Below are positions 1 to 41,809 of a DNA stretch of 64,000 nt, piece by piece. Within the stretch, counting starts at the first letter, position 1; every line of letters begins with the position of its first letter. A program made the position numbers and the translations under genes. Under the pieces are notes generated by a model that was not told where the DNA came from, did no database searches, and was given only the letters and a program-made list of their open reading frames with translations. The DNA comes from an uncultured Dehalococcoidia bacterium (GTDB lineage: Bacteria; Chloroflexota; Dehalococcoidia; UBA2247; RBG-13-53-26). Where the stretch lies: the NCBI GenBank assembly GCA_964492335.1, contig CAZBJX010000011.1:878-64877 (forward strand), read 5' to 3'.

Positions 1-66
1 GGGGCGCTTTCAAGAGGGGGCGCACCCCGCGGCCACCGCCACCGGCAACTGTGATCCCTGTGTGAT

Positions 67-1885: not shown

Positions 1886-2070
1886 GGCCCGCCCCCGGTC
1901 CCTCGCCCGTATGCTAGCACACGCCCCCCGGCCCCGGTCAAACCCGCCCCGGCACGGGCCCGCCGGTTGATGGGAATTTGTGAGGGCCGGGACTGCCGCG
2001 GCCCCCTCTTTGTGGTACACTGCCTGTGCTCCCCGGCCGGCACCGCAGCCGGGGATGGGGCGGGCACCAG

Positions 2071-5195: not shown

Positions 5196-6496
5196 GCGTC
5201 ATCCCCCCGCAGCGATGCCTCGTACAGGCGGACATGGGCCGCGGCCGCGTTCTCCCAGGAGTTCTCCTCCACGAAGCGGGCGATACTGCCGGCCATCTCC
5301 TGCCTCTCCTGCGGCGTGAGAGAGGAGAAGCGCAACATGGCCTGTCGCAGCGATTCCGGGTCCTCGGGCCGGTAGGTCAGCCCCAGCCCCCAGCGGCGCA
5401 CCAGGTCGCCGTCGTCCCCGGCATCGGCGGTGATGGCCGGGACCCCGTACTGCGCCGCCACGTACAGCACCCCGCTTACCGAGGCAAAGCCCTTCAGGTG
5501 GGACAGGATGACGGCGTCCGCCGCGCAGAAGTAGAGCGGGACCTCGTCTTCGGCGATATAGCGGTCGTCCACGGTGGTCCTGCCCGCCAGGCGGTACCGG
5601 CGGGCCAGGCGCCGGGGGTTGTTCTCCCGGTACTGCGGCAGCACCTTCCCGGCGAACACCAGCCGGCAGTCCAGGTCCAGGCCCGCCGCCGCCGCGAAGA
5701 TGGTGCGGAAGTCCTTGTAGGCGTGGTTGGTCCCGAAATGGAGCAGCACCAGATGGCCATCCGCCAGTTGCAGGCGCCGCCTGGCTTCCTCCCTGGACAC
5801 GGGGGCCGCCGATGGGGAGTAGACCGCCAGCGGTATGGTGAATATCCGGTCGCGGAACGGGGCCCTGGCATACGTGGCGGTGATGGAGGGGGAGTCGCTG
5901 AGGAAGGTCAGGCGGTTCCGCCTCATGGCCCGGCGGTAGAGCCGGTTGGTCAGGGCAATGCCCGGCCTCCCCCCCAGGACCAGGGCCGCCAGCAGGCGCA
6001 GGCACCTCGCCAGCTCGAGATGGAGGACGGCGCTCCCGAACTTGGCCCCCCAGCCCCGGACATCCTCCTCCCGCGAATGGACCCACAGCCCGTAGACGAT
6101 GTTCTTGCGGCGCTGGAGCAGGGCGAACAGCGGGTAGAAGACCTCCGGCACGGCCACCCCGGGAACATGGATGACGTCGAAGCTCTCCCGCCGGCAAACG
6201 CGACGGGCCATCTCCAGGGTGCAGGCGGTGGCCTGGATCTCATCGGCCACCTGCCGGATGGGCCTCAAGGGTATGAGCCGGGGAAGAAGCCGGCACACCC
6301 GGCCGCGGCGGCCGGCCGCCTCCACGAAGGAGATGTGCCGCACCCCCGCCACGAGCCCCTGGCTGTCCACCAGCCCGTCGAAGGAGACCAGGCTGATGTC
6401 GATGCCCCTGGCGGCCAGGGGCCCGCTCAGGCACCGCACGTACTCCTCGAAGTACCCCGGCGTGTGCGCCAGGGGCTCCACCAGCAGCAGCTTCAC
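5180..6496 (-). CDS. glycosyltransferase family 4 (GT-B, GT1/GT4 superfamily)
   Basis: GTG start at 6496 (MKLLLVEP...). C-terminal GT4 EX7E-like region (FASVSGVLYVAAQYGVPAITADAG). Converges on the flippase (16-nt tail overlap). Confidence 0.8.
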   Translation of the reverse strand: MKLLLVEPLAHTPGYFEEYVRCLSGPLAARGIDISLVSFDGLVDSQGLVAGVRHISFVEAAGRRGRVCRLLPRLIPLRPIRQVADEIQATACTLEMARRVCRRESFDVIHVPGVAVPEVFYPLFALLQRRKNIVYGLWVHSREEDVRGWGAKFGSAVLHLELARCLRLLAALVLGGRPGIALTNRLYRRAMRRNRLTFLSDSPSITATYARAPFRDRIFTIPLAVYSPSAAPVSREEARRRLQLADGHLVLLHFGTNHAYKDFRTIFAAAAGLDLDCRLVFAGKVLPQYRENNPRRLARRYRLAGRTTVDDRYIAEDEVPLYFCAADAVILSHLKGFASVSGVLYVAAQYGVPAITADAGDDGDLVRRWGLGLTYRPEDPESLRQAMLRFSSLTPQERQEMAGSIARFVEENSWENAAAAHVRLYEASLRGDDAQGAV

Positions 6497-6563
6497 CAGG
6501 TGCCCCCCGGACCCGGCCGCCGCGACGATGCCGCCGCGGGCGTTGGCCTTCCATCGCCGCCGC

Positions 6564-7646
6564 CTAGCGGCCGGCGATCCTGTCCCAGATCAATCGGCGG
6601 TTTCTCCACACGTAGCCTCTGTCGTACCAGGTGTTTCGCAACAGCATGGGCGCTTTGTGCATGAAGGCCCCCGGCATGGAGTAGCTCTTCTCATAGACCC
6701 GCACCGGCACCCGGGTCCCCCGGAATCGCTCCTTGAAGAAGGCCAGCCCGGGCGTGGCGGTGGCCCCGAAATCAACAGACGCGTACCCGCCGGCGCAGGC
6801 ATCTTCGATGGCCGCCTTCCAGCACAGCTTGTTGGCGTCGTCGGAGTCCTTCTGGTAGCTCCCGATCTTGGCCAGGTAGCACGTCGAACGGGTGTAATGG
6901 CACAGGAGTATGGCCGCAGGCTGGCCTCCGGAGAGCGCCACGAACATCTTCGACCTGTCCCTGAAGACCTCCAGCCTGGCCCGCAGCTCCTCTCTGGACG
7001 GCGCCTTCGTACGGTGCCGGGCGTAGTTGGCATACAGCATGTCCATGAAAAGGTCGGCATGCTTCATCTCCGGGTCCTCGGTGACCACCATACCCCTTTC
7101 CTCAGCCTGCCTCACGCCCTGCCTGATCATCCTGGACCATCGCCTCCATACGTTCTGCTCGAAGGGCGGCCGTATCTGCAGGATGTGGTTGCAGGGCAGC
7201 CGGGTCCCGGCCTCGTACCTGAAGCGGAACCCGCGCTCCAGCAGGGCGGGGGTGGGCTCCTGGGACTGGCTTTCCCCCGGTGCCGCGGTCTCCACCAGTT
7301 TGAAAGCGGCGCACCCCCTGGAGCAGTGCCGGTCAACATACCCCAGCAGGGCCGAAGTGGCCTCGAGCCTCTCCTCGCCGGACAGGTCCTTCCTCAGCAG
7401 CAGTCCTTCCACACCGCCCATCCTGGCGGAGTCCAGGGTCGTGTGCAGCAGATGTTGCTCCCTGACGATGGGGAGGATGCCAGCCAGCTCCGATGCGCGG
7501 CCCTCGACCAGCAGCGGAATGAACTGGAAACCGCCCGCCTCGTGCACCGGCTTCCAGTCATAATAGTGGAACAGGCTTCCCCCCTCCGCGTCCACGAAGG
7601 CGTTCCACCTCTCACGGTCGGCCCCGGTGGCCTCCCGTACCTTCAA
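6564..7646 (-). CDS. FemAB-like / BioF2-like GNAT-fold acyltransferase (Acetyltransf_6 family)
   Basis: TTG start at 7646 preceded by GAAAGGGGG, overlapping the upstream stop (TTGA). Motif LCWKAAIEDACAGGYASVDFGATATPGLAFFKERFRG typical of FemAB-like proteins. The ORF-track N-terminus (7647-7994) is an out-of-gene extension. Confidence 0.65.
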   Translation of the reverse strand: MKVREATGADRERWNAFVDAEGGSLFHYYDWKPVHEAGGFQFIPLLVEGRASELAGILPIVREQHLLHTTLDSARMGGVEGLLLRKDLSGEERLEATSALLGYVDRHCSRGCAAFKLVETAAPGESQSQEPTPALLERGFRFRYEAGTRLPCNHILQIRPPFEQNVWRRWSRMIRQGVRQAEERGMVVTEDPEMKHADLFMDMLYANYARHRTKAPSREELRARLEVFRDRSKMFVALSGGQPAAILLCHYTRSTCYLAKIGSYQKDSDDANKLCWKAAIEDACAGGYASVDFGATATPGLAFFKERFRGTRVPVRVYEKSYSMPGAFMHKAPMLLRNTWYDRGYVWRNRRLIWDRIAGR

Positions 7647-8941
7647 GTCACGGGCCCCCTTTCGTCGCCGGGGGCCGGACCCGGGGGCACGCACCCGGCC
7701 AGCACCTGCCCCATCTCCTCTATGTCCCTGCGGCCCACAGCGGGATTGACCGGCCACAGTAGCAGGGAGTCTCGGACCCGGCACACGTTCCGGGTCAACT
7801 GCTCCGGCCAGTACTCCTGGTGGCCGGGCCAGGTGGTCTGCAGGGGCAGTCCCCTCTCTGCGCACAGGTCCCGGATGCGCCGGATGTCGGCCCCCTCGAA
7901 GCTCATGGCCAGGTAGGAGTAGGTACTGCCCGCATCTGGGCCTGCGGCGCTTCGCGGGTAGCCGCACCCGAGGCGCGCCAGCAGCGCCTGGCATACCTCA
8001 ACCCTGCGGCGGTTGAAGAAGTCCAGTTTGCGCAACTGGGCCCGGCCCAGCTGCGCCACGACGCCCGGCATGGTCAGGAAGTACTGCCGCTTCCCGCCGT
8101 CAATGCCCCCTGCTGCCTCCCGGTGGCGCACCTCCATCAGTCCATCCCCTCTTCCCCCATCCACCGTCAGGGCCCTCGCCCGGCGGCCCGGCACGCAATT
8201 CATCACGGCGTTGCCGGTCCTGACACCCCAGCGCATCAGGAGCTTGGAGGCCCGCCGGCCCGGCTGGTTGAATACCGTCCTCTCCAGGAGCGGCACGAAT
8301 CCCCCGTTCACCACGGGGTACATGATACCGTAGTGGGTCCAGTTGCTCCGCCGGGACAGCGTCTGCATCAGATCGCGGGCCCTTTCGTGAGCAGCCCGGT
8401 CGCGGCACACCAGGAGTCCCCCGCTGAAGTTCAGTGTGCTCTTGCCCAGCGAGAAGGCTGCCATGTCGCCCAGCGTTCCCACCTTCCAGCCCTGGTGGGT
8501 CAGGCCCAGGCAATGGGCGCAGTCTTCGATGGCTACCAACCCCGTCTCCCGGGCATATGACAGTTGGGCCTCGTAGTTGCCGGCGGCCCTCCCGTAGTAG
8601 TGAGTGATGATGAGGCACCGGGACCGGTCACTGGTCTTCCTCTTCAGGTCATCCAGGTCCAGGCTCAGGTCGGCCGGGTCGATGTCCACGAAGACCGGGG
8701 CGGCCCCGGCCAGGCACACCGCGTCCCGGACCACGTTGCAGGTGAACGCCGGCAGGAGCACCTCCCGGCCGCGGGCATCCGCCACCCCCAGGGCCAGGTA
8801 GAGCGCCGTCCGAGCATACCTGGTGGCAGTGACATGGGGGACCCCGATGTAAGAGGCGAACTCGGTCTCGAAATCGCCCACCGCCGTTCTTCCCGGCGGG
8901 GCCAGGCAGGCCCGCACCTCTTCAGCCCCCCAGTACCTCAT
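7643..8941 (-). CDS. DegT/DnrJ/EryC1/StrS family PLP-dependent sugar aminotransferase
   Basis: ATG at 8941 overlaps the upstream stop (ATGA). Fold-type I aminotransferase motifs (LPAFTCNVVRDAV, DCAHCLGL, SLGKSTLN). Confidence 0.85.
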   Translation of the reverse strand: MRYWGAEEVRACLAPPGRTAVGDFETEFASYIGVPHVTATRYARTALYLALGVADARGREVLLPAFTCNVVRDAVCLAGAAPVFVDIDPADLSLDLDDLKRKTSDRSRCLIITHYYGRAAGNYEAQLSYARETGLVAIEDCAHCLGLTHQGWKVGTLGDMAAFSLGKSTLNFSGGLLVCRDRAAHERARDLMQTLSRRSNWTHYGIMYPVVNGGFVPLLERTVFNQPGRRASKLLMRWGVRTGNAVMNCVPGRRARALTVDGGRGDGLMEVRHREAAGGIDGGKRQYFLTMPGVVAQLGRAQLRKLDFFNRRRVEVCQALLARLGCGYPRSAAGPDAGSTYSYLAMSFEGADIRRIRDLCAERGLPLQTTWPGHQEYWPEQLTRNVCRVRDSLLLWPVNPAVGRRDIEEMGQVLAGCVPPGPAPGDERGPVT

Positions 8942-9585
8942 CGGCCGTCGTCCCATTCTTCCGTCCAGAACCCCAACATGAGCACCCGGACCAGCGTCAC
9001 CCGCCCGCACAGACTGGAGCCCATCTTCTCCTGGAGTCGCAGGACCGCGCGGTTATCGGTCAGCGTCGCTGCTATGACCACCGACTTGCCCTGGCCCCTG
9101 AGGAACTCCAGCTGCCGTACACCCTGGGCAACGACGATCCCCTGCCCTCTGTATCGCGAGCTCGTCAGGGCGTGGCCCAGGTAGGCCTCCACCAAGTAAT
9201 CCATCTTCTTGACAGGAGGATCGATGCGGGCCCTGGCATCGATGGCCACCCATACCCAGGAGGCAACCTCGCCGTCGACCACGGTCATCAGCCCCACCTT
9301 GTGCTCCGCCAGCAACCTGCGGGCATCCCTGGCGGAGAACGGCGGCCTGAAGCAGAGGCCTCCATTGATCAGGGCCTCCAGGTCCGGCCGGCCCCACACC
9401 ACCTCTAAGCGGGCCCCCGTCATCTTCGGGGCCGGCCCACTGGGAACGCTTCCCAGCACGCTGCGCCAGAGGTGCCACTCCCGGCGCCAGTAGACGGGCC
9501 GCAGGCAGTACCAGAACGCCCTCCGCACCAGGCCGCCCGGCCCCTCGCGGGCAACTATCTCCCGGCCCTCCCGCGCCAGCCTCAT
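8938..9585 (-). CDS. GNAT family N-acetyltransferase
   Basis: ATG at 9585 overlapping the ATP-grasp stop (ATGA); an alternative GTG start at 9603. GNAT motif YRGQGIVVAQGV. Confidence 0.7.
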   Translation of the reverse strand: MRLAREGREIVAREGPGGLVRRAFWYCLRPVYWRREWHLWRSVLGSVPSGPAPKMTGARLEVVWGRPDLEALINGGLCFRPPFSARDARRLLAEHKVGLMTVVDGEVASWVWVAIDARARIDPPVKKMDYLVEAYLGHALTSSRYRGQGIVVAQGVRQLEFLRGQGKSVVIAATLTDNRAVLRLQEKMGSSLCGRVTLVRVLMLGFWTEEWDDGR

Positions 9586-10823
9586 CGCCTCACCCCGGGC
9601 CACCGGCCGCCCGCCCCTGCCCCCGGTCCGGCGGCCCCTCCCGCCTGCCGGCGCACTACCATCCTCAGAGGGATATTGAGGGCCATGGCTATGACCGGAA
9701 GAGGATCGCGTATGGACATGTCCTCATACTTAGTCGCCCCGAAGTCCAGAAAAGCCTTGATGGTGTCCAGCCTGCTGCCGCCCTGGCGCAGGTAAGCCGG
9801 CAGGGCCCGGGCGTCACTCCACAGGCACCGGGTCCTGACCCCCACTTTGTAGTCAGGCACCGGGCCGACATCGCCGTCCAGCGCCAGGCGGTACAGGAGA
9901 TAGGGGACCTCCACCCCGGAAGCAACGGCCTGATAGAGAGACCCCCAGAGCCTGGGGTTCATCTCCAGCAGCCGGGGCGTGTTATCCCGCTCGTCCAGCC
10001 GGAAGTCGGCCATGAGCACGCCGTGCCACTTCATCTCCGCCGCCAGCGCCTCCAGGCACCCCGTCATCTCCGGCTGCAGGACGCTCACCCGCACCACCAT
10101 GAGGCCCCCGCCCGGCGGGAGGTTCCTGATGCTGCGGGCCACCATGCGGGCCCTGGGCTCCCCGTGATGGAAGAGGCCGGCGGCCACGTAGTCGGTCCCG
10201 GGGACGTACTCCTGGACGAACGGCAGGTCGCCGGGGCCGGAGCGGTACCTGGCCACCGTGTCCCGGTAGACCCGCACCGCCTCCTCCCGGCCCCCCACCA
10301 GCGACATCCCCTTGCCCCCCTCGGCGGAGCGGACCTTGATCACGGCCGGGTACGACAACCGTGCGGCCAGGGCCTCCGCTTCCTCCAGCGAGTCGGGGAA
10401 ATGGGTCACGGGGACCGGCACGCCGACGCGGCGGGCGAGATCAGCCATCTTCCGCTTGTCATGGGCCATCTCCATGAACTCGTATTGGTGCACCGGGACC
10501 CTGAGGTGCGGGGCCTCGGACCTGATGGTATCGGCAAACCTGGAGATGACCAGGGTTTCTTCATAGGCGGGCATCAGCACCCGGTATTCGGGGTGCCGGT
10601 TGGCGAACTCGCATATGGCGCGGATGAAGCCTTCGGGGTCGGCCTCATAGCCGGGATAGGTGAAACGCTCAGTGCAGTAGCGCGAGGAGGCCGCCGGCTG
10701 GAAGAAGTATCGCGGCAGGCGGTGCTGCTCCCCGCAGGCCACCCGGATGCCGCGGCGGCCGAGGCACCTGGCGGCCACCAGGGCATGCCAGAGCGCGGCC
10801 GACGTCAGAATAACCCCCGACAC
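9582..10823 (-). CDS. ATP-grasp domain ligase (carboxylate-amine ligase-like)
   Basis: ATP-grasp signatures (AVIKVRSAEGGKGMSLV, LLEMNPRLWGS). Start assigned to GTG at 10823 just after the upstream gene TAG (10829-10831); start uncertain. The ORF-track N-terminal 80 aa overlap the upstream gene. Confidence 0.65.
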   Translation of the reverse strand: MSGVILTSAALWHALVAARCLGRRGIRVACGEQHRLPRYFFQPAASSRYCTERFTYPGYEADPEGFIRAICEFANRHPEYRVLMPAYEETLVISRFADTIRSEAPHLRVPVHQYEFMEMAHDKRKMADLARRVGVPVPVTHFPDSLEEAEALAARLSYPAVIKVRSAEGGKGMSLVGGREEAVRVYRDTVARYRSGPGDLPFVQEYVPGTDYVAAGLFHHGEPRARMVARSIRNLPPGGGLMVVRVSVLQPEMTGCLEALAAEMKWHGVLMADFRLDERDNTPRLLEMNPRLWGSLYQAVASGVEVPYLLYRLALDGDVGPVPDYKVGVRTRCLWSDARALPAYLRQGGSRLDTIKAFLDFGATKYEDMSIRDPLPVIAMALNIPLRMVVRRQAGGAAGPGAGAGGRWPGVRR

Positions 10824-10828
10824 TCCGA

Positions 10829-11893
10829 CTAGTCCGCCTTTGCCGCCTCCGATACTTCCTCCAGGGTGACCCGCTCCTTCCGGCGCAGGCTCTCCTGGGC
10901 CGCGTGCAGGACCATGCTGGTCATCATCGCCTGCTCCACGGGGACTGGCACCTCTCCCTCGCCGGCGATGCTCTTGACGAACTCCCCGATCAGCGGCCGG
11001 TAGGCCAGGTTCGGCAGGTTGAAGTAGTTCCCGGACAGCACCCCGGTGCCCAGCCTCCACATCTTCCTGGCGAAGAAGCCGGCGTCATCGAAGGGGGTGG
11101 CGATGCCGCGCGTCTCGGAGAAGACGTCGTTCCTCACATCCAGAAACAGGCTCCCGGCGGTGCCGTGTATGTCCAGGGTGAACCGGGACAGGGCCGTGAC
11201 CCAGGAGATATCCGCCGTGGCCACGCTGCCGTCCGCGAACTCCATGCTTATGACGGCGTAGTTGACGAAGTCCATGCCCCCCCCGGTCAGATCGCCGCCC
11301 GAAGCGTAGACGGCCTGCAGCGGGGCGAAGCCCTTCATCCAGAGGACCATGTCGACAACATGGGGGCCGAAATCATAGAGCGCCCCCCCGGGGTGGTAGA
11401 GCCAGGTGTTGAGGGTCCAATGCGTGGGGAAGTTGGCCAACCCCACCCCGTGAATGGTGACCAGCCGGCCCAGGTACCCGCCCGTGATCCTGGCCCTGGC
11501 CGCGCCCACCGACGGGAAGAACCTCCAGTTCAGCACCACACACAGCTTGATGCCGCTCTCCGCGGCCATCCGGCGGATGCGGGCCGCGTCCGAGAGCGTG
11601 CTGGCCAGGGGCTTCTCCAGCAGCACGTGCCGCCCCTTCCCGGCCACCGTCCGCACGATCTCCAGGTGGGTGGGGGTGGGAGTGCAGACGTCCACCATGG
11701 CAATGTCCTCGTCCTGCAGCATCTCCTCGCAACTGGAGCAGCAGCGGGGTATGCCGAACTCCCTGGCGACGCTCGCGGCCAGCTCCTGGTCCCGGTCGGC
11801 AATGGCCGCCACCTCCACGCCGGGAATGGCCCGGTAGGCCGGCAGGTGCCCCCTGCGGGCAACGGCCCCGGCGCCGACGATGCCCACCTTCAC
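10829..11893 (-). CDS. Gfo/Idh/MocA family NAD(P)-dependent oxidoreductase (UDP-sugar dehydrogenase, WbpB-like)
   Basis: Rossmann motif MKVGIVGAGAVARRGHLPAY, EKPLA motif. GTG start overlaps the DUF362 stop (GTGA). Confidence 0.85.
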   Translation of the reverse strand: MKVGIVGAGAVARRGHLPAYRAIPGVEVAAIADRDQELAASVAREFGIPRCCSSCEEMLQDEDIAMVDVCTPTPTHLEIVRTVAGKGRHVLLEKPLASTLSDAARIRRMAAESGIKLCVVLNWRFFPSVGAARARITGGYLGRLVTIHGVGLANFPTHWTLNTWLYHPGGALYDFGPHVVDMVLWMKGFAPLQAVYASGGDLTGGGMDFVNYAVISMEFADGSVATADISWVTALSRFTLDIHGTAGSLFLDVRNDVFSETRGIATPFDDAGFFARKMWRLGTGVLSGNYFNLPNLAYRPLIGEFVKSIAGEGEVPVPVEQAMMTSMVLHAAQESLRRKERVTLEEVSEAAKAD

Positions 11894-12801
11894 GGCACGC
11901 TCCCTCCCCCGGCCCGGAACCTCTGCTGGCTCTTGCGCTGCAGGAAGCTGGCCATCCTCAACAGGCGCATCTGGGACCAGCTGGTCTCGAAGTCCACCCG
12001 GTCTATCCTGTCACCGGCCAGCACGTACCTCATGGACCCCACCCCCGACGAAGCACTCTTGCGGATATGGCCCACTGACCGGGGGCGCAGGCCCATCAGC
12101 CGGGCGCCGTAGGCGTCGGCGGCCACCGGGTCCCGGCTGCAGAAGATGGCATTCTGCGGTATGGGCACCCCGAAGGCCGGCCCCCAGATGCCGCCCATCA
12201 CCGTTATGGCGTCCACCACGCAAAGGTCAGGGCGCATGGCCAGGTTCACGTCGGCGATGACGTCATCCAGGCAGGGGTGATAGGCGCCCTTCTCCACCTC
12301 GGGCAGGCAGCCGAACTGGTTCTTCAGGCAGCAGGTCATGGTGGAGATGGGGTTGGTCTTCAGCCTGGGGGTGGTGATGAAGTACCGTGGCTGGTCCAGG
12401 ATATCCGGCACCGGGACCTCCTTGAAGTACCGGCCGTTGATCTTCCGCATCAACGCCTTTGTCCGGCTGAGGTTGACGAACTCGGCGTTCCACTTCTCCA
12501 GGACGGGGACGTAGCCGAACCAGCGGATGAACCGGTCGGCCAGGACCACGGTGGCATCGCTCTCCACCACGCAGATCCGGAGGCCCTGGCAGCTCTCCCG
12601 CAGGTGCTGCAGCAGGGCATCCAGGAACACCGGGTGGGTGATAGTGGCCGTCTCAGCGGTCCGCGCATCGCACACGTTGATCTTGATGACCACCGGGAGA
12701 CGGTTGTCCAGGGGGGGCAACTGCAGGCGGGCCAGGGCCCGGCCGATGCCGCCGCGGGCATCCTGGTACCCCGATCGGGCCACGGCCACCAGGCTGTTCA
12801 T
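11890..12801 (-). CDS. DUF362 domain protein (uncharacterised enzyme, COG2006-like)
   Basis: Internal ATG at 12801 (MNSLVAVARSG...) overlapping the upstream stop (ATGA). The ORF-track upstream 79 aa is out of gene. Confidence 0.55.
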   Translation of the reverse strand: MNSLVAVARSGYQDARGGIGRALARLQLPPLDNRLPVVIKINVCDARTAETATITHPVFLDALLQHLRESCQGLRICVVESDATVVLADRFIRWFGYVPVLEKWNAEFVNLSRTKALMRKINGRYFKEVPVPDILDQPRYFITTPRLKTNPISTMTCCLKNQFGCLPEVEKGAYHPCLDDVIADVNLAMRPDLCVVDAITVMGGIWGPAFGVPIPQNAIFCSRDPVAADAYGARLMGLRPRSVGHIRKSASSGVGSMRYVLAGDRIDRVDFETSWSQMRLLRMASFLQRKSQQRFRAGGGSVP

Positions 12802-14513
12802 GCCCCCGCCCCCTTCCATCCCTGCTCCTCGAGTATGTAGAGCACCAGGTCCGGGTTGGCGTACACCTTGCTGCAGTTGGTGCTGGCTTCCATGGCGGCC
12901 GTGATCTCGGTGGCGGCCTGGGGCGAGTTGTAGTAGAAGTCCATCACTGCCCGGTCGTGGTCGCTGATGATGACGTAGCGCGGGGCGATGTCGGGGTCGC
13001 CCAGGGTGCCGAACCGCACCAGCTCGCCGTCCCTCCACTCCAGGGCGCCGTAGCCGAGGTCCTTTCCATACCGCTCGTAGTACTTCAGCGAGCCTATGGG
13101 CGCCCCGCCGATAACGTAGCCCCCCTGCGTCTTCTGGTGGAACATCTCCGCCCCGGCGAAGTACCCCGGGGAGAGGTAGTCCATGGACTGGCTCCCATAC
13201 TTGGCCACGAAGGACAGGGGAGCGGCCACCAGCAGGAACAGGCAGAGCGCCACCGCGGTGGCCCGCCCCTGCAGCAGCTTGACCCCGAAGTAGGCTATGA
13301 CGGGGAGCACGAAGACGAAGACCCGCTGGAAAAGCTCATGCAGGTAGCTCCCGCCGACGACCACGGCCGCTATCCCGCACCCGGCCACCACCGCCACCAT
13401 GGTGACGTCATGATGGGCCATCCGCTTGAACCTCCAGGCGGCGAAGGCCCCCGCAGCAGTCAGCAGCACGAACAGGCCCGAGAAGATGACCCTGGCCCCG
13501 GCCACCGCGGAGTGCGCCTCAGACCCCGTCAGCGGATTCAGCACCCCCTTCTGGGCCGCCTCATCCAGCCGGAGGGCCTGGGTCACGAACTGGCTCAGGC
13601 TCCAGTCGAAGTAGACCGCCGCCCCGTAGATGGACCACGCCCCGACGAACAGCACGGCCAGGGCCAGCAGGTTCAGGGACTTCACCCGCCTGGTGATGAA
13701 GAGCGTGCCCGTGACGGCCAGGGCCACGAAGGACCCCAGCAGGTGCGCCACGGCCGAGGCCCCGTAGATGATGATGGCCACCAGCCGCCTGCTGACGGCG
13801 CCGGGGCCCGGCTGCCAGAACCGGGGCATGGTCAGCACCGCCAGCAGGCTGAACAGGAAGAACACGCCGAAGGCCTGGGCGCCGGTATTCTGGGTCTCGA
13901 ACCAGAAGCCCAGGTAGAAGAGCCACATGGCCGCCCAGCAGTGGTTGGGGTTGGCCCGGCCGATGGTGTTGCGGAAGAGCAGGAACACGGGCAGGAACAT
14001 CAGGCACTGCCACAGGAACGGCACCCAGTCTATCAGACGGGCCAGGCCCTCCATGCTGGCCCCCGACATCTTGATCCCCATGGCCCAGAATATCCAGGCG
14101 GTGGGCCAGTTGTGCTGCCACACCGCCTTCTGGCTGAAGCTGCCGGTGCGGGTGATGAATTCGATGTACCCCATGTCGCCGTAGGCATCGGACAGGAACG
14201 GCTGCGCCCCCCCCACTATCAGCGGGGCCAGCCAGATGGAGACCACCAGGAAGGCCAGTTGCAGGAAGAGAAGCTTCCCGTGGTCCTCCCGGGAGACCCA
14301 CAGGACGGCCGAGGCCACAGTGAGGACCCCCAGGGACACGTAGAACGCGGCCGGGAAGCTGGGAAGCAGCCCCCAGAACCCGATCTGCAACCGCGCCTCG
14401 GCCACGCTCCAGGCCCACAGCGCCAGGGCGATGATGGTGAGGGCCATCGAGGCCCGGGCCGGCGCCAGGCCCTGCAGCCGCCACTCCCCGGCCCGGGCGC
14501 CCACGGCGGTCAC
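12798..14513 (-). CDS. large polytopic membrane protein (12 or more TM) with C-terminal soluble domain; candidate GT-C-type glycosyltransferase or glycan polymerase
   Basis: Hydrophobic helices throughout residues 1-420, then a soluble about 150-aa C-terminal domain. GTG at 14513 overlaps the upstream stop (GTGA); an alternative ATG at 14447. No WWDYG (AglB/PglB) motif. Function is inferred from operon context only. Confidence 0.55.
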   Translation of the reverse strand: MTAVGARAGEWRLQGLAPARASMALTIIALALWAWSVAEARLQIGFWGLLPSFPAAFYVSLGVLTVASAVLWVSREDHGKLLFLQLAFLVVSIWLAPLIVGGAQPFLSDAYGDMGYIEFITRTGSFSQKAVWQHNWPTAWIFWAMGIKMSGASMEGLARLIDWVPFLWQCLMFLPVFLLFRNTIGRANPNHCWAAMWLFYLGFWFETQNTGAQAFGVFFLFSLLAVLTMPRFWQPGPGAVSRRLVAIIIYGASAVAHLLGSFVALAVTGTLFITRRVKSLNLLALAVLFVGAWSIYGAAVYFDWSLSQFVTQALRLDEAAQKGVLNPLTGSEAHSAVAGARVIFSGLFVLLTAAGAFAAWRFKRMAHHDVTMVAVVAGCGIAAVVVGGSYLHELFQRVFVFVLPVIAYFGVKLLQGRATAVALCLFLLVAAPLSFVAKYGSQSMDYLSPGYFAGAEMFHQKTQGGYVIGGAPIGSLKYYERYGKDLGYGALEWRDGELVRFGTLGDPDIAPRYVIISDHDRAVMDFYYNSPQAATEITAAMEASTNCSKVYANPDLVLYILEEQGWKGAGA

Positions 14514-15406
14514 AGCTCTCCCCGCAGCAGGGAGAAGGTCTCGCGCGCCTGCTCCGCCCTCGAGACGCCGACCGCCACGCCGCTCAGCGACGGCAGCGCG
14601 GCCACGTAGGCCGCCGCCTCGGCCGGCTTCACGTACCCCGCCGCCAGGATGCTGAAGGCAATTACCTCCGCTCCCGGCACCTGGCGCAGGGCCTCCTCGC
14701 ACGCCTCCTTCGAGGGGCACATCTGGAAGCCCGCAGGATTGAAGGAGGCCGCCAGCGCCACGCCGCGGGGGTCGATGCCCCACTCCCGGAACCTCCTCAC
14801 CAGGTACGGCAGGTTGCGGGTCTCGAAGCCGGGCTTGACGCCGCGGCCCGACATGTACTCGATGTGGGCCTCCGCCACCCATTTCATGTCCAGCGCCAGG
14901 GCCATGTCCGTCAGCAGCTCGTGGAGCATGACGGAGGCCAGCACGCACTTCCCCCCGGCGGCAGACCTCACGCGGGAGGTCTCCAGGGAGAGGTAGCTCC
15001 GCAGCAGCGCCGCCGGGTCCCCGAAGAGCGCCCCACGGGCCCCGCTGGCCACGGCCCGCCAGTTGCCAGACGCCAAGATCTGCCGGCCCACCCCCCTGGC
15101 CAGGCCCGGCACTCCGCCGGCCCGCACCGCCATCCTGACGTACTCATAAGCATAGGGCACAATGACATAGAGCCTCAGCCCCTCCGGCTTCCTGTCCCGC
15201 ACCAGCCTCCGCAGTATGCCCAGGGTGGTCTCACTGGCGCTGAACATGAACCCGTCCGCCCCGTGGTCCAGGGCGGCGGCCACCAGGCCGGCCCCGCGCT
15301 CAGGGCTGCCCACGTCGGCCCCCCGGGAAGCAGCCCTGGCCTGCGACAGATGGCTTATCCCGTGGAAGGGGTTGTCGCCCACCAGCAGCAGCCTCTTCCC
15401 GTCCAT
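14510..15406 (-). CDS. hypothetical protein (possibly TIM-barrel enzyme), unknown function
   Basis: ATG at 15406 immediately after the upstream TAG (TAGCATG). No family recognised from sequence alone. Confidence 0.45.
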   Translation of the reverse strand: MDGKRLLLVGDNPFHGISHLSQARAASRGADVGSPERGAGLVAAALDHGADGFMFSASETTLGILRRLVRDRKPEGLRLYVIVPYAYEYVRMAVRAGGVPGLARGVGRQILASGNWRAVASGARGALFGDPAALLRSYLSLETSRVRSAAGGKCVLASVMLHELLTDMALALDMKWVAEAHIEYMSGRGVKPGFETRNLPYLVRRFREWGIDPRGVALAASFNPAGFQMCPSKEACEEALRQVPGAEVIAFSILAAGYVKPAEAAAYVAALPSLSGVAVGVSRAEQARETFSLLRGEL

Positions 15407-15407
15407 G

Positions 15408-16394
15408 CTAGCGCACCCCACCACCCATGCCCTTCATGGCGTCGGTGATCCTCTCCACCTGGCTGGCGGCATCGAAGCCGGGCTCCGCCACCCCGCCCTC
15501 CAGGATGGACTGCACGAAGGCGCAATCCTCGCGGACGTACTCGGAGCCGCCGATGAAGAAGGGCACCGCATCGCCCAGGTCGTGCCGGTGCCAGGTGCTG
15601 ACCCGGCCGGCCAGGGACAACTCCACCCGGTCCTCGTTGACCCTGAGGGCCCCCTTCGGCCCCTGCACCACCACCTCGAACTCCGGCATGCGGTGCTCCG
15701 GCCGGCACCAGGATGTCCTGATCTCCCCCTTCAGGCCGCCGGGGGTGACCACGGAGCACTCCGCCTCGTCTTCCGCCGGGCCACCCAGAAGGGACCTGAC
15801 CTGCGCACCGGTGACATCCATGGGCCCGAACAGCCACAGCGCCAGGTCGACGGCGTGACACCCCAGGTCGTCGATGGCCCCACCCCTGGCCGAGGCCTTC
15901 CCGCCGCCCCTGGCGCCGCAGAAGTCCGAGGACCAGGCGCAGGCCTCAAACGAGGACGGCGGGCCCAGTACGCCCTCTCCAAGCATCTGCTTCGCCTTCG
16001 CGAAGGTGACCGAGAACCGGCGGTTGTAGCCCACCATGCTGACGCCGCCCCAGACCCTGGCCAGCGCGGCGGCCTCCGCCGCCTCCGGGAAGCTGGTGGC
16101 CAGCGGCTTCTCCACGAAGACATGCCGGGCAATGCCCGCCTGGTACACCTGCTTCAGTACGGGGAAATGGGAGCGGGCGGGGGTGGTGATATACACCGCG
16201 TCCAGCCCCAAGCCGGCCAGTTCCTCCACGCCGGCCACCACCCGGACCGCCGGGAGGAACCTGCCGGCAAACCGGCGCACCAGCGGGCTGATCTCGCAGA
16301 AGGCCACCAGTTCGGCCTCCTCCATGGAGCCCAGAATGCTGCCATGCAGCAGCGCCATCTTGCCCAGCCCCACCACACCAACGCGCACCTTCAT
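15408..16394 (-). CDS. Gfo/Idh/MocA family oxidoreductase (second copy)
   Basis: MKVRVGVVGLGKMALLHGS Rossmann motif, EKPLA motif. ATG overlaps the GT2 stop (ATGA). Confidence 0.85.
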   Translation of the reverse strand: MKVRVGVVGLGKMALLHGSILGSMEEAELVAFCEISPLVRRFAGRFLPAVRVVAGVEELAGLGLDAVYITTPARSHFPVLKQVYQAGIARHVFVEKPLATSFPEAAEAAALARVWGGVSMVGYNRRFSVTFAKAKQMLGEGVLGPPSSFEACAWSSDFCGARGGGKASARGGAIDDLGCHAVDLALWLFGPMDVTGAQVRSLLGGPAEDEAECSVVTPGGLKGEIRTSWCRPEHRMPEFEVVVQGPKGALRVNEDRVELSLAGRVSTWHRHDLGDAVPFFIGGSEYVREDCAFVQSILEGGVAEPGFDAASQVERITDAMKGMGGGVR

Positions 16395-17449
16395 CGCCCG
16401 TAGATCCAGACCCCGAAGACGTACCCCGTGGCCATCAGGGAGAGGTTGGCCACGATGGCCGCCGCCTGCGGCAGGCTGGCCGGCCGGTAGAAGCGGACCA
16501 GCCGCCCGCCGATCGACCGGAAGAGCAGCCGGCGCAGAAAGACGCTCTCCGCGGCCAGCGGACGGCTGCCGTACCGCGACACCAGACCCTTCATCAGCGC
16601 CCTAGTGTGCCCCTCGCGCAGGCAGAAGTCAAGCATGTAGGAGGGCTTCGCCCTGCCGGCCACCACCTTGTGGTGGACCACGGCGTCGCGGCGAAAGACG
16701 ATGCGGCCGCCAGGCATGTGCTTCCTGATCCGCAGGCACATCTCCGCCTCTTCGCCGCCGGCGGGGTTGAACTTCTTGCGGCCTCCCTCGCACCTTCCCA
16801 GGCTGGTCTCCCAGAGGCCCGCCTTCTGGAAGACCTCCCGCCGGAAGGCCATATTGCTGCCAGTGACGTTCCGGATGGAGCCATCGGCCTCCACGATGAG
16901 GGCCTTGTGACCGGTGCAGCCGATCACGAAATCGAACTCCACGGGGAACCACAGCGGAGGCCGCCCTCCCGGCCAGGCGGGGACCGCCTCACCGCCTACC
17001 GCCACCACCAGGGGGTCATCGAAGGCCGCCGCCAGGCTGGCCAGCCAGTCCTTCTCCGCCACCGCGTCGTCGTCCAGGAAGGCCACCACTTCGCCGGTGG
17101 ACGCGCCCACGGCCACGTTCCTGGTCTCCGACAGGCCGGGGCGGCCGGTGGAGAGGAGCAGGGTCACCCGGGATCCCAGTATCGCCCCCAGGCGCTGGTA
17201 GAGGGCCTCGTTGTGGTCGATGGCCACTATGACCTGGTGGGGCGCCAGGGTCTGCGCCAGGGCGGATTCCACTGCCTCCAGCGTGTCCTGCAGGCGCTCC
17301 TGGGTATAAGCGCAGATGACCACCGACACGCTGAGGGGACTTGCGTCCTCCCCGCGAGCGGTGGTCCGCCCGGAGGCGCCTGCTGCCGGCTCGGGTCCTG
17401 GCTGTCTGCGCTCGGCTCCGGCTACGCCTCCATCTGCCCCGGGCGCCAC
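16391..17449 (-). CDS. glycosyltransferase family 2
   Basis: GT2 N-terminal signature LSVSVVICAYTQERL, DxD (LDDDAV). There is no in-frame ATG before residue 230 of the ORF, so the start must be GTG (candidates 17449 or 17326-17332); start uncertain. Confidence 0.7.
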   Translation of the reverse strand: MAPGADGGVAGAERRQPGPEPAAGASGRTTARGEDASPLSVSVVICAYTQERLQDTLEAVESALAQTLAPHQVIVAIDHNEALYQRLGAILGSRVTLLLSTGRPGLSETRNVAVGASTGEVVAFLDDDAVAEKDWLASLAAAFDDPLVVAVGGEAVPAWPGGRPPLWFPVEFDFVIGCTGHKALIVEADGSIRNVTGSNMAFRREVFQKAGLWETSLGRCEGGRKKFNPAGGEEAEMCLRIRKHMPGGRIVFRRDAVVHHKVVAGRAKPSYMLDFCLREGHTRALMKGLVSRYGSRPLAAESVFLRRLLFRSIGGRLVRFYRPASLPQAAAIVANLSLMATGYVFGVWIYGR

Positions 17450-18360: not shown

Positions 18361-18389
18361 AAAAGAAAAACCGACCTCAAGGTCGGTTT
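18361..18389 (-). terminator. rho-independent terminator at the 3-prime end of leader RNA A
   Basis: Minus-strand hairpin AAACCGACC-TTGA-GGTCGGTTT followed by TTTTTCTTTT (plus-strand A-tract 18361-18370). It sits upstream of the GT2 gene on the same strand. Confidence 0.75.
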
Positions 18390-18650
18390 CACTACTGGCT
18401 CCCTGTTCCCCAAGTGACCACTTACGGGCAACAGTTCATCGCCCCCGGGCAGACTCCAGAATGCGCCTACAAGTCAGTCTCCTGTATTATCGCCCCCTCC
18501 GCTTTCCATACCGGCCCGCGCTCACGACCGTGCCGGCGCCACCACAGGAACTCATGGAGTCAACTGCAACCTGCTCCCCGGCCGCGCCCTGTCCCCCGCA
18601 ACCAAGTCCACTTCGCCCCTCTGATCGGACACTTCGGTGACAGCTAACTG
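18361..18650 (-). promoter_or_regulatory. about 290-nt cis-regulatory leader RNA A (candidate riboswitch/attenuator) upstream of the glycan operon
   Basis: Minus-strand promoter TTGACT-N17-TACATC at 18657-18685, no credible ORF, lower GC, terminated by an intrinsic terminator. The 3-prime about 180 nt are homologous to the leader at 36597-36889 (shared TGGTCACTTGGG, GGGAGCCAGTAGTGAAACCGACC, AGGAGACYGAC..TAGGC, TCYGYCCCGGG). Confidence 0.6.
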
Positions 18651-18843
18651 TTATTAGATGTACCATGCGACGCTCGAATAGTCAAGCGTTTTTGCTGCCG
18701 TTTTGCACGCAATGGCACCGGTCCCCGGAGATGCCGCGGCAGTCTGTCGCCGGGCCCCGGTGCCAGGCCCTGTGGCGCTACTGCCCGAAGGCTGTACCAA
18801 ATCCCGCGAGCATGGTAGTATGAAGGGCAATTCGGGCCAAGCC

Positions 18844-20526
18844 ATGAACATATTGGGGCTGAACTACTACTTCCATGACTCCTCGGCCTGCCTGGTGGCG
18901 GACGGGAAGATCGCCGTGGCCATCGAAGAGGAGCGGCTGACCCGCCAGAAGCACACCCACGAGTTCCCGGAGAAGGCCATCGCGCGCTGCCTGGCCATGG
19001 CCGGCCTGAAGCCCGCGGACATCGACGCGGTGGCGGTTTCCATCAAGCCCACCAAGAACTGGCCCACAAAGGCCCTCTACGCGCTGGCCCACGCGCCCCA
19101 CGCCAAGCCGTTCGTGGCGCACGAGTTGCTCCAGGGGCGCAACCGGCAGCACATGTTCTGGGACTGGTACCGGGGGACCTGGCCGCAGGGGGGCCCCAGG
19201 GTCTACTTCGTGCCCCACCACGTCGCGCATGCCGCCGGCACGTTCCTGGTCTCGCCCTACGAAGAGGCGGCCATCATCAGCCTGGACGGCTCCGGCGAGT
19301 GGTCCACCTCCTTCATCGGGCGGGGGGCCGGCACCCGGGTGGTCCCCTTCTCCGAGAGCTTCTTCCCCAACTCGCTGGGGTCCTTCTACGAGTCGGCCAC
19401 CCAGTTCTGCGGGTTCCGCCCCAACTACGACGAAGGCAAGACCATGGGACTGGCGCCGTTCGGCGACCCGGAGGTGTTCGGCAAGACAGTGGACCGCATG
19501 GTCACCGTCGATGCCGGCGGCGCCATCAAGGTGGACCTGTCCTATTTCCGGTTCCAGTACAACGAGCCGCGGCGCTTCTCCGCGAAGTTCATGGAGGCCT
19601 TCGGCCCTCCGCGCACCGGGAAGGAGTTCGGGGACAACCACAAGAACGTGGCCGCCGCCTTTCAGAAGGCCCTCGAGGACCGGGCCCTGGAGCTGTGCTC
19701 GCTGGCGAGGCAGAGGACCGGGAGCCGGCACCTCATCATCGCGGGGGGCGTGGCCCTCAACAGCGTGATGAACGGGCGCATCCTGCGCGAGGCCGGATTT
19801 GACGACATCTACGTGATGCCGGCGGCGGGAGACAACGGCACCGCCATCGGCGCCGCCTTTCACGTCTACAACAGCGTACTCAACCATCCCCGGGTGTTCG
19901 TGCACGATGATCCCTATCTGGGGACGTCCTATTCCGATGAGCAGATAGCGAGGGTGCTCAGCGGCTGCAAGCTGCGGGCCGCCCGGCAGGACGACATGGC
20001 GGCAACGGCGGCGCGGCTTCTGGCCGACGGCCAGATCCTGGGCTGGTTCCAGGGCCGCATGGAGATCGGCCCCCGGGCCCTGGGCAACCGCAGCATCCTG
20101 GCCAATCCCACCCTGCCCTACATGAAGGACAAGATCAACGCCGAGGTCAAGCACCGCGAGGCCTTCCGGCCCTTCGCCCCTTCCGTTCCGGTGGAGGACA
20201 AGGACACGTACTTCGACATCATCGGGGAAAGCCCGGTCATGCTCAAGGTCTGCCCGGTCCGCCCGGAGATGCGGCAGTTGCTCCCCGCCATCACCCATGT
20301 CGACGGCTCGGCCAGGCTCCACACCGTCACCCGGGACATCAATCCCCTCTTCCACGACCTGCTGCGCAAGTTCGGCGCCCTGACCGGGACCCCCGTGCTC
20401 CTCGACACCAGCTTCAACATCCAGGGTGAGCCGATCGTGGAGTCGCCGGAGGACGCCATCCGCTGCTTCTTCTCCACAGGCATGGACTCGCTGGCGCTGG
20501 GCAGCTTCCTCATCACCAAGGACTGA
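18844..20526 (+). CDS. NodU/CmcH family carbamoyltransferase (O-carbamoyltransferase)
   Basis: N-terminus MNILGLNYYFHDSSACLV matches the family start; conserved HHxAH (VPHHVAHAAG) and C-terminal YrdC/Kae1-like regions. An alternative ATG at 18820. Confidence 0.85.
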   Translation: MNILGLNYYFHDSSACLVADGKIAVAIEEERLTRQKHTHEFPEKAIARCLAMAGLKPADIDAVAVSIKPTKNWPTKALYALAHAPHAKPFVAHELLQGRNRQHMFWDWYRGTWPQGGPRVYFVPHHVAHAAGTFLVSPYEEAAIISLDGSGEWSTSFIGRGAGTRVVPFSESFFPNSLGSFYESATQFCGFRPNYDEGKTMGLAPFGDPEVFGKTVDRMVTVDAGGAIKVDLSYFRFQYNEPRRFSAKFMEAFGPPRTGKEFGDNHKNVAAAFQKALEDRALELCSLARQRTGSRHLIIAGGVALNSVMNGRILREAGFDDIYVMPAAGDNGTAIGAAFHVYNSVLNHPRVFVHDDPYLGTSYSDEQIARVLSGCKLRAARQDDMAATAARLLADGQILGWFQGRMEIGPRALGNRSILANPTLPYMKDKINAEVKHREAFRPFAPSVPVEDKDTYFDIIGESPVMLKVCPVRPEMRQLLPAITHVDGSARLHTVTRDINPLFHDLLRKFGALTGTPVLLDTSFNIQGEPIVESPEDAIRCFFSTGMDSLALGSFLITKD

Positions 20527-20750: not shown

Positions 20751-21416
20751 ATGGCCCGGGCATCCCTGAGACGGCAGCAGATACTGAGCTTCATCCGAGA
20801 GTTCATAGAGCGGAAGGGGTATCCCCCCACGGTGAGAGACATCCTGCGCAGCTGCCGCATCAGCTCCCCGGCGGTGGTGCAGCACCACCTCAAGGTGCTG
20901 GAGGGGCAGGGCCACATCAGCCGTGAGCCCGGCATCCGCCGCAGCATCACCCTGGCCGGCAGGCCCGGGCGCGCGGCCAGGGTCCCCCTCCTGGGGCAGA
21001 TTGCGGCGGGCCAGCCCATACCGGTGCCGCAGCCGGACTCCTGGCACGAGGAGCCCCTGGAGATGCTGGAGGTCCCGGCCGGCCTGGCCCCCGGAGGAGG
21101 CGCGCCTGCCGGCGGCGTCTACGCCCTGCAGGTGAAGGGGCAGTCCATGATCGACACCCTCATCGATGATGGCGATATCGTCATCATGCAGGCCGCCAGC
21201 ACCGTCAACAACGGTGAAACGGCGGCGGTGTGGCTCAGGGCGGAGCAGGAGGTCACCCTGAAAAGGGTCTACCGCGAGCGCGGGCGCGTCCGCCTGCAGC
21301 CGGCCAACAGCCAGATGGAGCCCACGTACCACGACCCGGAGAACGTAGAGGTCCGGGGAAGGGTCATCGGCGTCATCCGGGCCCTCGCAGGGCCGGCCCG
21401 GGCCGCCCTTCTCTAA
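20751..21416 (+). CDS. lexA: LexA repressor (S24 peptidase)
   Basis: N-terminal winged HTH (TVRDILRSCRISSPAVVQHHLKVLEGQGHI), Ala-Gly cleavage region, Ser/Lys catalytic dyad region (VKGQSMID ... LKRV). Confidence 0.9.
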   Translation: MARASLRRQQILSFIREFIERKGYPPTVRDILRSCRISSPAVVQHHLKVLEGQGHISREPGIRRSITLAGRPGRAARVPLLGQIAAGQPIPVPQPDSWHEEPLEMLEVPAGLAPGGGAPAGGVYALQVKGQSMIDTLIDDGDIVIMQAASTVNNGETAAVWLRAEQEVTLKRVYRERGRVRLQPANSQMEPTYHDPENVEVRGRVIGVIRALAGPARAALL

Positions 21417-21437
21417 GCCCGCATCCAGGAAACCAGG

Positions 21438-22655: not shown

Positions 22656-22706
22656 AGGCGCCGCGGCACAGGATCAGGAAGGCCGTACAGGAGGGGCCCG
22701 ACAGCC

Positions 22707-22955: not shown

Positions 22956-22957
22956 CC

Positions 22958-27999: not shown

Positions 28000-28002
28000 C
28001 CG

Positions 28003-29484
<1,482 letters not shown>

Positions 29485-41807: not shown

Positions 41808-41809
41808 CC

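Follow-up and report, generated by a model that had tools for sequence, protein, structure and literature searches.

Two predicted GT-C glycosyltransferases in separate glycan operons

The window analyzed here is a stretch of 64,000 nucleotides from an uncultured Dehalococcoidia bacterium of the phylum Chloroflexota (GenBank assembly GCA_964492335.1, contig CAZBJX010000011.1, positions 878 to 64,877 of the forward strand). It encodes two large polytopic membrane proteins, denoted A and B, each in an operon that also encodes other glycosyltransferases and sugar-modifying enzymes. Both are very probably glycosyltransferases of the GT-C fold that act on the outer face of the membrane and use a polyprenyl-phosphate-linked donor. 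This prediction, which the initial annotation had put forward as a candidate function, is supported by the fold, the topology, the acidic residues in the outer loops, and the pairing with a GT2 family enzyme.

12798-14513, minus strand: protein A, predicted GT-C-fold membrane glycosyltransferase, 571 aa, 13 transmembrane (TM) helices
42975-44933, plus strand: protein B, predicted GT-C-fold membrane glycosyltransferase, 652 aa, 13 TM helices

The GC content of the window is 64-72% (genome, 68%). Because many spurious open reading frames (ORFs) overlap real genes, frames were selected using third-position GC (GC3) together with homologs. GC3 reaches 0.83 for protein A and 0.93 for protein B, and both ORFs are clearly coding. 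The gene for protein A begins with a GTG that overlaps the stop codon of the upstream gene, and its homologs are 541-571 aa long; the coordinates originally given for it are exact. Those given for the gene for protein B placed the start at 42972, one codon (3 nt) too early: translation begins at the ATG at 42975, and close homologs are 652-657 aa long.

Both proteins have the general plan ascribed to them in the initial annotation, that is, about 570-650 aa with at least 12 TM helices and a soluble C-terminal domain. According to the secondary structure of the AlphaFold models, each comprises 13 TM helices, with the N terminus inside, and a predicted extracytoplasmic C-terminal domain of 130-155 aa (residues 440-571 in protein A and 496-652 in protein B). 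Lysines and arginines in protein A number 10 among 52 inner-loop residues versus 6 among 108 outer-loop residues, and therefore the positive-inside rule backs the predicted topology. The corresponding counts for protein B (8 among 74 inner-loop and 9 among 123 outer-loop residues) do not discriminate; they are uninformative because arginines cluster in the helix ends, which are placed on the cytoplasmic side.

Although the two proteins had been described as paralogs, direct comparison with BLASTP detected no similarity between them (E value of 0.22), and homology became apparent by profile-profile comparison. Alignment with hhalign of the profile of A (18 homologs) against that of B (40 homologs) yielded a probability of 97.6% and an E value of 3e-12 over 483 columns; with a more diverse set of B homologs (n = 57), these values became 98.2% and 2.7e-14 over 515 columns, end to end. 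Identity between A and B in the profile alignments is 10-14%. By this measure, A and B are remote homologs that are linked at the profile level only, so the relationship stands, albeit a distant one.

Predicted fold and conserved residues

The AlphaFold model of protein B has a mean predicted local distance difference test (pLDDT) score of 83.8 and a predicted template modeling (pTM) score of 0.85. When this model was compared to the PDB using Foldseek, the best nine matches were all GT-C enzymes (STT3, PglB, AftA, ArnT, and DPY19) with a probability of 1.0, and AglB was the best structural match. AftA (Rv3792, CAZy family GT85) is the priming arabinofuranosyltransferase of mycobacterial arabinogalactan. 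The GT-C matches were followed by major facilitator superfamily (MFS) proteins and other transporters with probabilities of ≤0.14. Two other folds had been named in the initial annotation as speaking against the prediction, namely, that of a transporter and that of an O-antigen polymerase (Wzy), and both were rejected: the former by its low Foldseek probability next to 1.0 for GT-C and the latter because no WaaL, RodA, or Wzy-like structure appeared among the top 60 structural matches of either model. Neither protein matched a Wzy_C-type family.

The TM domain of the predicted structure of protein B shows the helix arrangement of the GT-C core. The first outer loop (residues 41-56) is short and carries the invariant E48, whereas the second (residues 110-158) contains two helices (118-132 and 142-154), the first of which bears D118 and H122. 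These two residues are four positions apart, and each is at least 90% conserved among the 57 aligned sequences. Across the same sequences, which diverge down to ∼20% identity, E48, Y52, P142, H145, and W306 are invariant. A further outer loop, partly ordered (residues 310-346), lies between TM9 and TM10, R447 is located at the outer end of TM12, and the C-terminal domain is modeled as an alpha/beta fold.

In protein A, the second outer loop spans residues 100-153 and contains D113, G115, E118, and R122, all invariant among 18 sequences. H257 and R397 of protein A align with H251 and R447 of protein B in the profile alignment. Thus, the conserved acidic residues that had been anticipated in the extracytoplasmic loops are found in both proteins (E48 and D118 in B; D113 and E118 in A), and in each of them, at least one lies on the first long outer loop, as placed by the predicted topology. 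Together, these features predict an AftA/AglB-like GT-C layout, in which acidic residues of the outer loops would be catalytic and a small alpha/beta domain would cap the active site. The candidate catalytic residues, in the numbering of protein B, are E48, D118, H122, H251, and R447.

A large, mainly archaeal family

Scans of A and B against Pfam and NCBIfam (E values up to 1), which include the STT3 and AglB models, returned no match, and profile searches of PDB sequences with either protein returned nothing at E values up to 10. The Pfam models PMT and PMT_2 did not match A, B, or any of 57 scanned members of the family. A word-indexed search retrieved 19 relatives for A and 43 for B; all but a few came from Chloroflexota metagenomes, and one came from Haloferax. 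A hidden Markov model (HMM) scan of 1.84 billion representative sequences with the profile of B recovered a far larger family, consisting of 2,894 clusters (defined at 50% identity) at an E value of ≤1e-3, 1,798 of which have an E value of ≤1e-30; nearly all are ∼600 aa long and are matched end to end. With one genome per species, the family is mainly archaeal, being present in dozens of genera of Halobacteria as well as in Methanosarcina, Methanoregula, ANME-1, Methanofastidiosum, and Bathyarchaeota, and the bacterial members belong to Dehalococcoidia and Anaerolineae. Haloferax members were found in H. gibbonsii, H. marinum, and H. profundi; none from H. volcanii was found among the 120 listed of 245 haloarchaeal matches or among the cluster members.

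Part of this family overlaps with DUF6541 (PF20176), a model that was matched by 12 of 57 diverse members of the family of B (E value of ≤0.01). Both members checked against the gathering cutoff of 29 bits pass it (P0210, 43.6 bits; P0194, 30.4 bits), and NCBI names one haloarchaeal homolog of B “DUF6541 family protein.” Most family members are nevertheless missed by this model, including A and B themselves, which do not match even at an E value of 1. DUF6541 carries no assigned function, and no paper on it was found in the literature searched. Haloarchaeal homologs are mostly named “hypothetical protein,” with a few labeled “RgtA/B/C/D-like domain,” “GT family 39,” or “DUF6541 family” and some wrongly named “MFS transporter”; the RgtA/B/C/D-like and GT39 labels in UniRef stem from other automatic pipelines. 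The suggestion that A and B may define a new family calls for correction, since the proteins are not wholly unplaced: they are part of a mostly archaeal family of ∼2,900 clusters, some members of which score above the DUF6541 cutoff or have been named automatically. No characterized member was found, and the family is uncharacterized yet visible in databases.

In three members (P0120, P0172, and P0204), the N-terminal half of DUF1616 is fused ahead of the GT-C protein. DUF1616 is a mainly archaeal membrane protein family that also neighbors both A-type and B-type clusters. Fusion and adjacency point to a functional partnership of some kind between DUF1616 and the GT-C protein.

Gene content of the two clusters

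The genes around protein A are as follows.

18372-18455, minus strand: cyclic di-GMP (c-di-GMP)-II riboswitch (RF01786) aptamer, leader of operon A, 63.8 bits
17422-18240, minus strand: GT2, first gene of operon A, polyprenyl-phosphate hexose synthase-like (Dol-P-Man synthase/AglJ/ArnC-like), start approximate
16391-17344, minus strand: second GT2 of operon A, AglG-like, start approximate; orthologs 317 aa
15408-16394, minus strand: GFO/IDH/MocA oxidoreductase, in conserved five-gene module A
14510-15424, minus strand: conserved soluble protein, 304 aa, no family match, always directly upstream of A-type GT-C genes
5180-12801, minus strand: downstream genes of operon A, in order, DUF362, GFO/IDH/MocA, ATP-grasp, small unassigned protein, DegT aminotransferase, Acetyltransf_6 (FemAB-like), GT4
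3801-5195, plus strand: Wzx-type flippase, flank of cluster A
1984-3810, plus strand: beta-helix NosD-like protein, flank of cluster A
55-927, plus strand: DUF1616 membrane protein, flank of cluster A

Those around protein B are as follows.

36789-36873, plus strand: c-di-GMP-II riboswitch (RF01786) aptamer, leader of operon B, 64.6 bits
36997-37824, plus strand: GT2, first gene of operon B, Dol-P-Man synthase/AglJ-like, 275 aa, GTG start behind AGGAGG
37998-42967, plus strand: middle genes of operon B, 283 aa unassigned protein, Acetyltransf_6/FemAB-like, DUF354, methyltransferase, GT4
45003-47185, plus strand: polysaccharide deacetylase and GNAT acetyltransferase, downstream of protein B
47243-49789, minus strand: Wzx-type (Polysacc_synt) flippase, convergent, cluster B, with C-terminal DUF7507/DUF11 repeats

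Each operon opens with a DPM1-like GT2, as had been proposed, which is circumstantial evidence for a polyprenyl-phosphate-linked donor. In both cases, the Pyrococcus Dol-P-Man synthase 5MLZ is the closest relative of known structure, with an E value of 5e-24 for operon A, ahead of ArnC (3e-18) and GtrB (2e-12), and of 4e-15 for operon B, followed by ArnC. AglJ is the best NCBIfam model for both, below its equivalog cutoff (6.5e-33 for operon A). The two GT2s are distant paralogs with 23% identity; orthologs of the one in operon A are 265-266 aa long in the related contigs L001 and L002. The second GT2 of operon A matches the AglG model NF041394 over positions 2-301 of 304 (5e-61), below the family cutoff. 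The AglG of Haloferax attaches the second sugar to a Dol-P-hexose (Dol-P-glucose). The genes downstream of protein A are, as judged from their sequences, those of sugar-modifying and elongating enzymes. No homology links the 304 aa protein of operon A to the 283 aa protein of operon B. The stop codon of the GT4 gene in operon B lies 8 nt before the start of protein B.

Module A, consisting of the two GT2s, the GFO/IDH/MocA oxidoreductase, the 304-aa-type protein, and the GT-C protein, is preserved in full in a relative with 48% identity, in which the genes farther downstream differ. The neighbors on the flank of cluster A recur in L001. A carbamoyltransferase gene diverges from operon A (18703-20526), and its counterpart in L001, a contig of 414 kb, is split into four short fragments (4062-5755), which reflect pseudogenization or else an artifact of assembly or a frameshift.

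The synteny of the middle genes of operon B is conserved in five related loci (L004, L007, L008, L011, and L015), and a Wzx gene also lies near homologs of B in L004, L007, L006, and L088. In the flippase of cluster B, ∼350 C-terminal residues of DUF7507/DUF11 repeats precede a hydrophobic segment at the very end; such repeats are of a surface type, and their fusion to a flippase is unusual. Adjoining the flippase gene, on the plus strand, is a gene (49787-51667) whose secreted product carries He_PIG/Big_9 domains as well as a dockerin. Counterparts of this dockerin protein in relatives (L004, 13828-16136; L007, 15904-19392) are encoded beside cohesin domain proteins, which suggests that a cohesin-dockerin surface assembly is conserved next to glycan cluster B, and the proteins of this assembly are possible candidate acceptors.

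c-di-GMP riboswitches precede both operons

The leader RNAs that had been noticed ahead of the operons proved to be genuine riboswitches of the same class. Both match the full c-di-GMP-II model with scores (63.8 and 64.6 bits) above its gathering score of 53.5 bits. In the leader of operon A, a terminator-like hairpin and T-run (18367-18390) share the strand ACCGACC with the P1 stem of the aptamer; in that of operon B, such a hairpin and T-run (36855-36881) follow the aptamer. In both, the 3' strand of P1, ACCGACC, can alternatively pair with a downstream GGTCGGT that is followed by a T-run, and this arrangement scans as a terminator. Because the strand is shared between P1 and the terminator, ligand binding should favor read-through, and both riboswitches are probably ON switches, to judge from their sequences. 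RF01786 also precedes the homologous operons in two other Dehalococcoidia metagenome-assembled genomes, one of A type (L002, 5647-5729) and one of B type (L008, 1806-1888). No paper linking c-di-GMP-II riboswitches to Chloroflexi was found in the literature searched. Another GC-rich hairpin, which is trailed by a T-rich stretch, is located at 36646-36668 on the plus strand, ∼120 nt upstream of the riboswitch of operon B; it may mark the end of an upstream transcript or be part of a longer leader.

Conservation of the neighborhood and the rest of the window

Proteins of the window were compared by tblastn to 87 loci that encode members of the family of B, with co-occurrence of the GT2 counted within 8 kb of the family member. 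GT4 was found at 45 of these loci, DUF354 at 32, GT2 at 28, and DUF1616 at 18. Orthologs of the first GT2 of operon B, at 37-52% identity, lie beside family members in at least 16 archaeal loci. Thus, the pairing of a GT2 with the GT-C protein that the initial annotation emphasized is real, but the GT2 is not the sole conserved partner, given that GT4, DUF354, and the Wzx-type flippase recur as often. The neighbors of distant members include GT4s, a Wzx-type flippase, a deacetylase, UDP-glucose dehydrogenase, an AsnB-like enzyme, and a sulfatase. Module B, comprising GT2, DUF354, GT4, and the GT-C protein together with Wzx and DUF1616, is conserved from Chloroflexota to haloarchaea, and the occurrence of the GT2-DUF354-GT4-GT-C cassette in both Archaea and Chloroflexota suggests that it moved as a unit.

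Clusters A and B are separated by unrelated housekeeping genes. Between them, on the plus strand, lies a cassette encoding LexA, an ImuB-like protein (IMS family), and a DnaE2-like error-prone polymerase (20751-26161); LexA and ImuB-like genes adjoin cluster A in L001, too. On the minus strand, a group of genes that looks like an osmoprotection module (27199-32058) encodes trehalose phosphatase, a TreT-type trehalose synthase, and an MscS-like channel fused to DUF5752, and an NrpR-type regulator with HTH_12 and NRD1_2 domains is encoded at 34501-35526. NrpR is the archaeal nitrogen repressor. The presence of this regulator along with AglJ- and AglG-like glycosyltransferases and DUF1616 suggests substantial gene sharing with archaea.

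A proposed pathway and its alternatives

Each GT-C protein would serve its own glycan operon. Binding of c-di-GMP to the leader riboswitch would block formation of the terminator through the shared strand, allowing the operon to be read. The Dol-P-Man synthase/AglJ-like GT2, as its homology implies, would then load a hexose onto polyprenyl phosphate. The AglG-like GT2, GT4, DUF354, oxidoreductase, aminotransferase, and acyl- and methyltransferases would extend and decorate the lipid-linked sugar; extension on polyprenyl phosphate is implied by the pair of AglJ-like and AglG-like GT2s and is assumed here because neither cluster encodes another initiating enzyme. The Wzx-type flippase of the cluster would move the product to the outer face, where the GT-C protein would take the saccharide from polyprenyl phosphate and attach it to an acceptor at the surface, which could be a protein or a growing glycan.

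What the GT-C protein transfers is less clear. Because GT4, DUF354, and Wzx are as frequent in the neighborhood as GT2, the donor might carry an oligosaccharide instead of one sugar. We tentatively favor en bloc transfer, by which the lipid-linked oligosaccharide made by each operon might be handed as a whole to a surface acceptor. The analysis shows the fold, the topology, the conserved residues of the outer loops, the gene neighborhood, and the riboswitches, and the donor, the acceptor, and transfer en bloc are inferred. This reading is favored because AglB is the best structural match of protein B. It might also make the clusters self-contained, much like haloarchaeal agl clusters in which the AglB step has been replaced. 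No WecA/WbaP-type initiating enzyme, Wzy, or Wzz was found among the GC3-supported genes scanned in the window, a scan that left out a few smaller ORFs.

Several observations weigh against en bloc transfer or against the assignment beneath it. The oligosaccharyltransferase motif WWDYG, already reported missing in the initial annotation, is indeed absent from both sequences, as are WWD and any other motif of these enzymes (the sole WW of protein B, at residue 321, lies in a loop), and neither protein matches the STT3 Pfam model. AftA moves a single sugar from a polyprenyl-phosphate monosaccharide onto a glycan, not an oligosaccharide. The presence of two cluster-specific paralogs in one genome, in place of one general enzyme of the AglB/PglB/STT3 kind, fits glycan-specific enzymes better. 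A GT2 was detected within 8 kb of a family member at only 28 of the 87 loci, and the gene for an initiating phosphoglycosyltransferase could lie beyond the window. No family member with a characterized function, donor, or acceptor was found. The model of protein A is of low confidence (pLDDT of 56) because just 18 close homologs were at hand; a GT-C enzyme is still its first structural match, and it was counted as weak support only. The family-wide invariant E48 is replaced by Q43 in protein A. Finally, the residue equivalences of A and B with AftA, AglB, or PglB are inferred from topology and sequence position.

A close rival, only slightly less probable, is side-chain glycosylation of the kind performed by AftA and the three-component Gtr systems. 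Here, the GT2 would make a polyprenyl-phosphate hexose donor, the flippase would export it, and the GT-C protein would add this single sugar to an outer-face glycan or protein whose backbone is started by an enzyme encoded elsewhere. The GT2s best match synthases of polyprenyl-phosphate monosaccharides (Dol-P-Man synthase and ArnC, with GtrB for operon A only), the overall architecture is closest to that of AftA, and the oligosaccharyltransferase motifs are absent. Furthermore, cluster-specific GT-C paralogs are typical of Gtr and GT136 systems, and a MATE/Wzx-type flippase serves the one in Citrobacter (PMC11127046). However, three to five other biosynthetic genes separate the GT2 from the GT-C gene, so that there is no compact cassette; the AglG-like GT2 beside the AglJ-like one suggests that the polyprenyl-phosphate hexose is extended; and GT4 and DUF354 are more constant neighbors than GT2. 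The clusters would also be incomplete, with no other initiating enzyme, polymerase, or ligase in either.

It is unlikely that the GT-C protein is instead equivalent to Wzy, joining flipped repeat units into a c-di-GMP-activated exopolysaccharide, perhaps with DUF1616 as a partner or copolymerase. Each cluster does contain a Wzx-type flippase and several glycosyltransferases, with no recognizable Wzy or Wzz, and one family member in the place that Wzy usually occupies. Control by c-di-GMP is typical of exopolysaccharide operons, beta-helix proteins are encoded nearby, and three members are fusions of the N-terminal half of DUF1616 with the GT-C protein. The fold matches weigh against such a polymerase, we know of no GT-C_A enzyme (the structural class of PglB and ArnT) that polymerizes oligosaccharide repeat units, and the role assigned to DUF1616 is pure speculation. 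That A and B are not glycosyltransferases at all but transporters, flippases, or noncatalytic scaffolds, as the lack of family-level annotation and the missing first-loop glutamate of protein A might suggest, is highly improbable given the Foldseek probabilities of ≤0.14 for transporter folds and 1.0 for GT-C, the conservation of polar and acidic outer-loop residues, a histidine, and an arginine across the family and between A and B, and the Wzx-type flippases that the clusters already encode.

A broader, speculative extension of these readings, to which we assign a low probability, is that the family supplies the missing non-AglB enzyme of archaeal surface glycosylation, moving an entire oligosaccharide from polyprenyl phosphate either to a protein, as a second oligosaccharyltransferase without WWDYG, or to a growing chain, as an archaeal equivalent of Wzy, and that Chloroflexota acquired the complete cassette and brought it under the control of c-di-GMP riboswitches. 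In Haloferax volcanii, no oligosaccharyltransferase has yet been assigned to the Agl15 pathway, which does not depend on AglB (PMC8241124); the family is abundant in haloarchaea.

In any case, ∼2,900 clusters of mostly “hypothetical” proteins from haloarchaea, methanogens, ANME, Bathyarchaeota, and Chloroflexota gain a predicted fold and candidate residues for mutation. The GT-C proteins would complete two glycan pathways that otherwise have no final transferase or polymerase, and the two riboswitches tie c-di-GMP signaling to the production of surface glycans in a Dehalococcoidia-like bacterium. If en bloc transfer were true, the family would add a second type to the GT-C enzymes that transfer oligosaccharides. 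The interest of these proteins lies in the size of the family, its spread across Archaea and Chloroflexota, and the riboswitch control; no rule is broken.

Comparison with known systems

The pairing of GT-C enzymes with polyprenyl-phosphate sugar synthases is well known, and GT-C families continue to be established, GT136 in 2024 being an example. AftA provides the closest architectural parallel. Its chains (598-620 residues; PDB 8IF8) are similar in size to A and B (571 and 652 residues), and the architecture is shared: the GT-C core excludes the first two of the 13 TM helices, the second outer loop bears an aspartate, and the C-terminal domain has an alpha/beta fold. In the structure of AftA, the catalytic Asp128, paired with Arg132, is located on the first long (second) outer loop, which forms two crossed helices; the long fifth outer loop lies between TM9 and TM10; an arginine holds the phosphate; and the C-terminal domain covers the active site (PMC10265970). 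D118 and H122 of protein B repeat the pattern of D128 and R132, that is, an acidic residue followed four positions later by a basic one on a two-helix second outer loop, and loop 310-346 of protein B corresponds in position to the fifth outer loop of AftA. The invariant glutamate in the first outer loop is an extra feature of B-type members. Shared architecture does not amount to family membership: A and B show no sequence similarity to AftA in the PDB profile searches (E values up to 10) and do not belong to GT85 by sequence. Moreover, AftA occurs in Mycobacteriales, whereas the family of A and B occurs in Archaea and Chloroflexota, and the partner of AftA is the decaprenyl-phosphate-arabinose pathway, whereas that of A and B is a hexose-type GT2 synthase.

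Three-component systems, such as GtrA/B/C, ArnC/ArnT, CsbB/YfhO, and the GT136 system of Citrobacter, encode a polyprenyl-phosphate sugar synthase of the GT2 family, a flippase, and a GT-C enzyme together. Both clusters of the window contain all three components, and the Citrobacter system likewise relies on a flippase of the MATE/Wzx type (PMC11127046). Unlike in these systems, the genes in the window are embedded in operons of 9-12 genes with additional glycosyltransferases and sugar-modifying enzymes, and there is neither a GtrA-type or small multidrug resistance-type flippase nor another initiating enzyme.

The oligosaccharyltransferases AglB, PglB, and STT3 (GT66) resemble A and B in having 13 TM helices, an N terminus inside and a C terminus outside, and acidic residues on the first and second outer loops. 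They differ in the WWDYG motif and in their match to the STT3 Pfam and NCBIfam models, and the C-terminal domain of A and B, unlike theirs, is just 130-155 aa long. At the level of gene content, the clusters of A and B taken together resemble the haloarchaeal agl clusters, with which they share AglJ-like and AglG-like GT2s, a methyltransferase, and a Wzx/AglR-like flippase.

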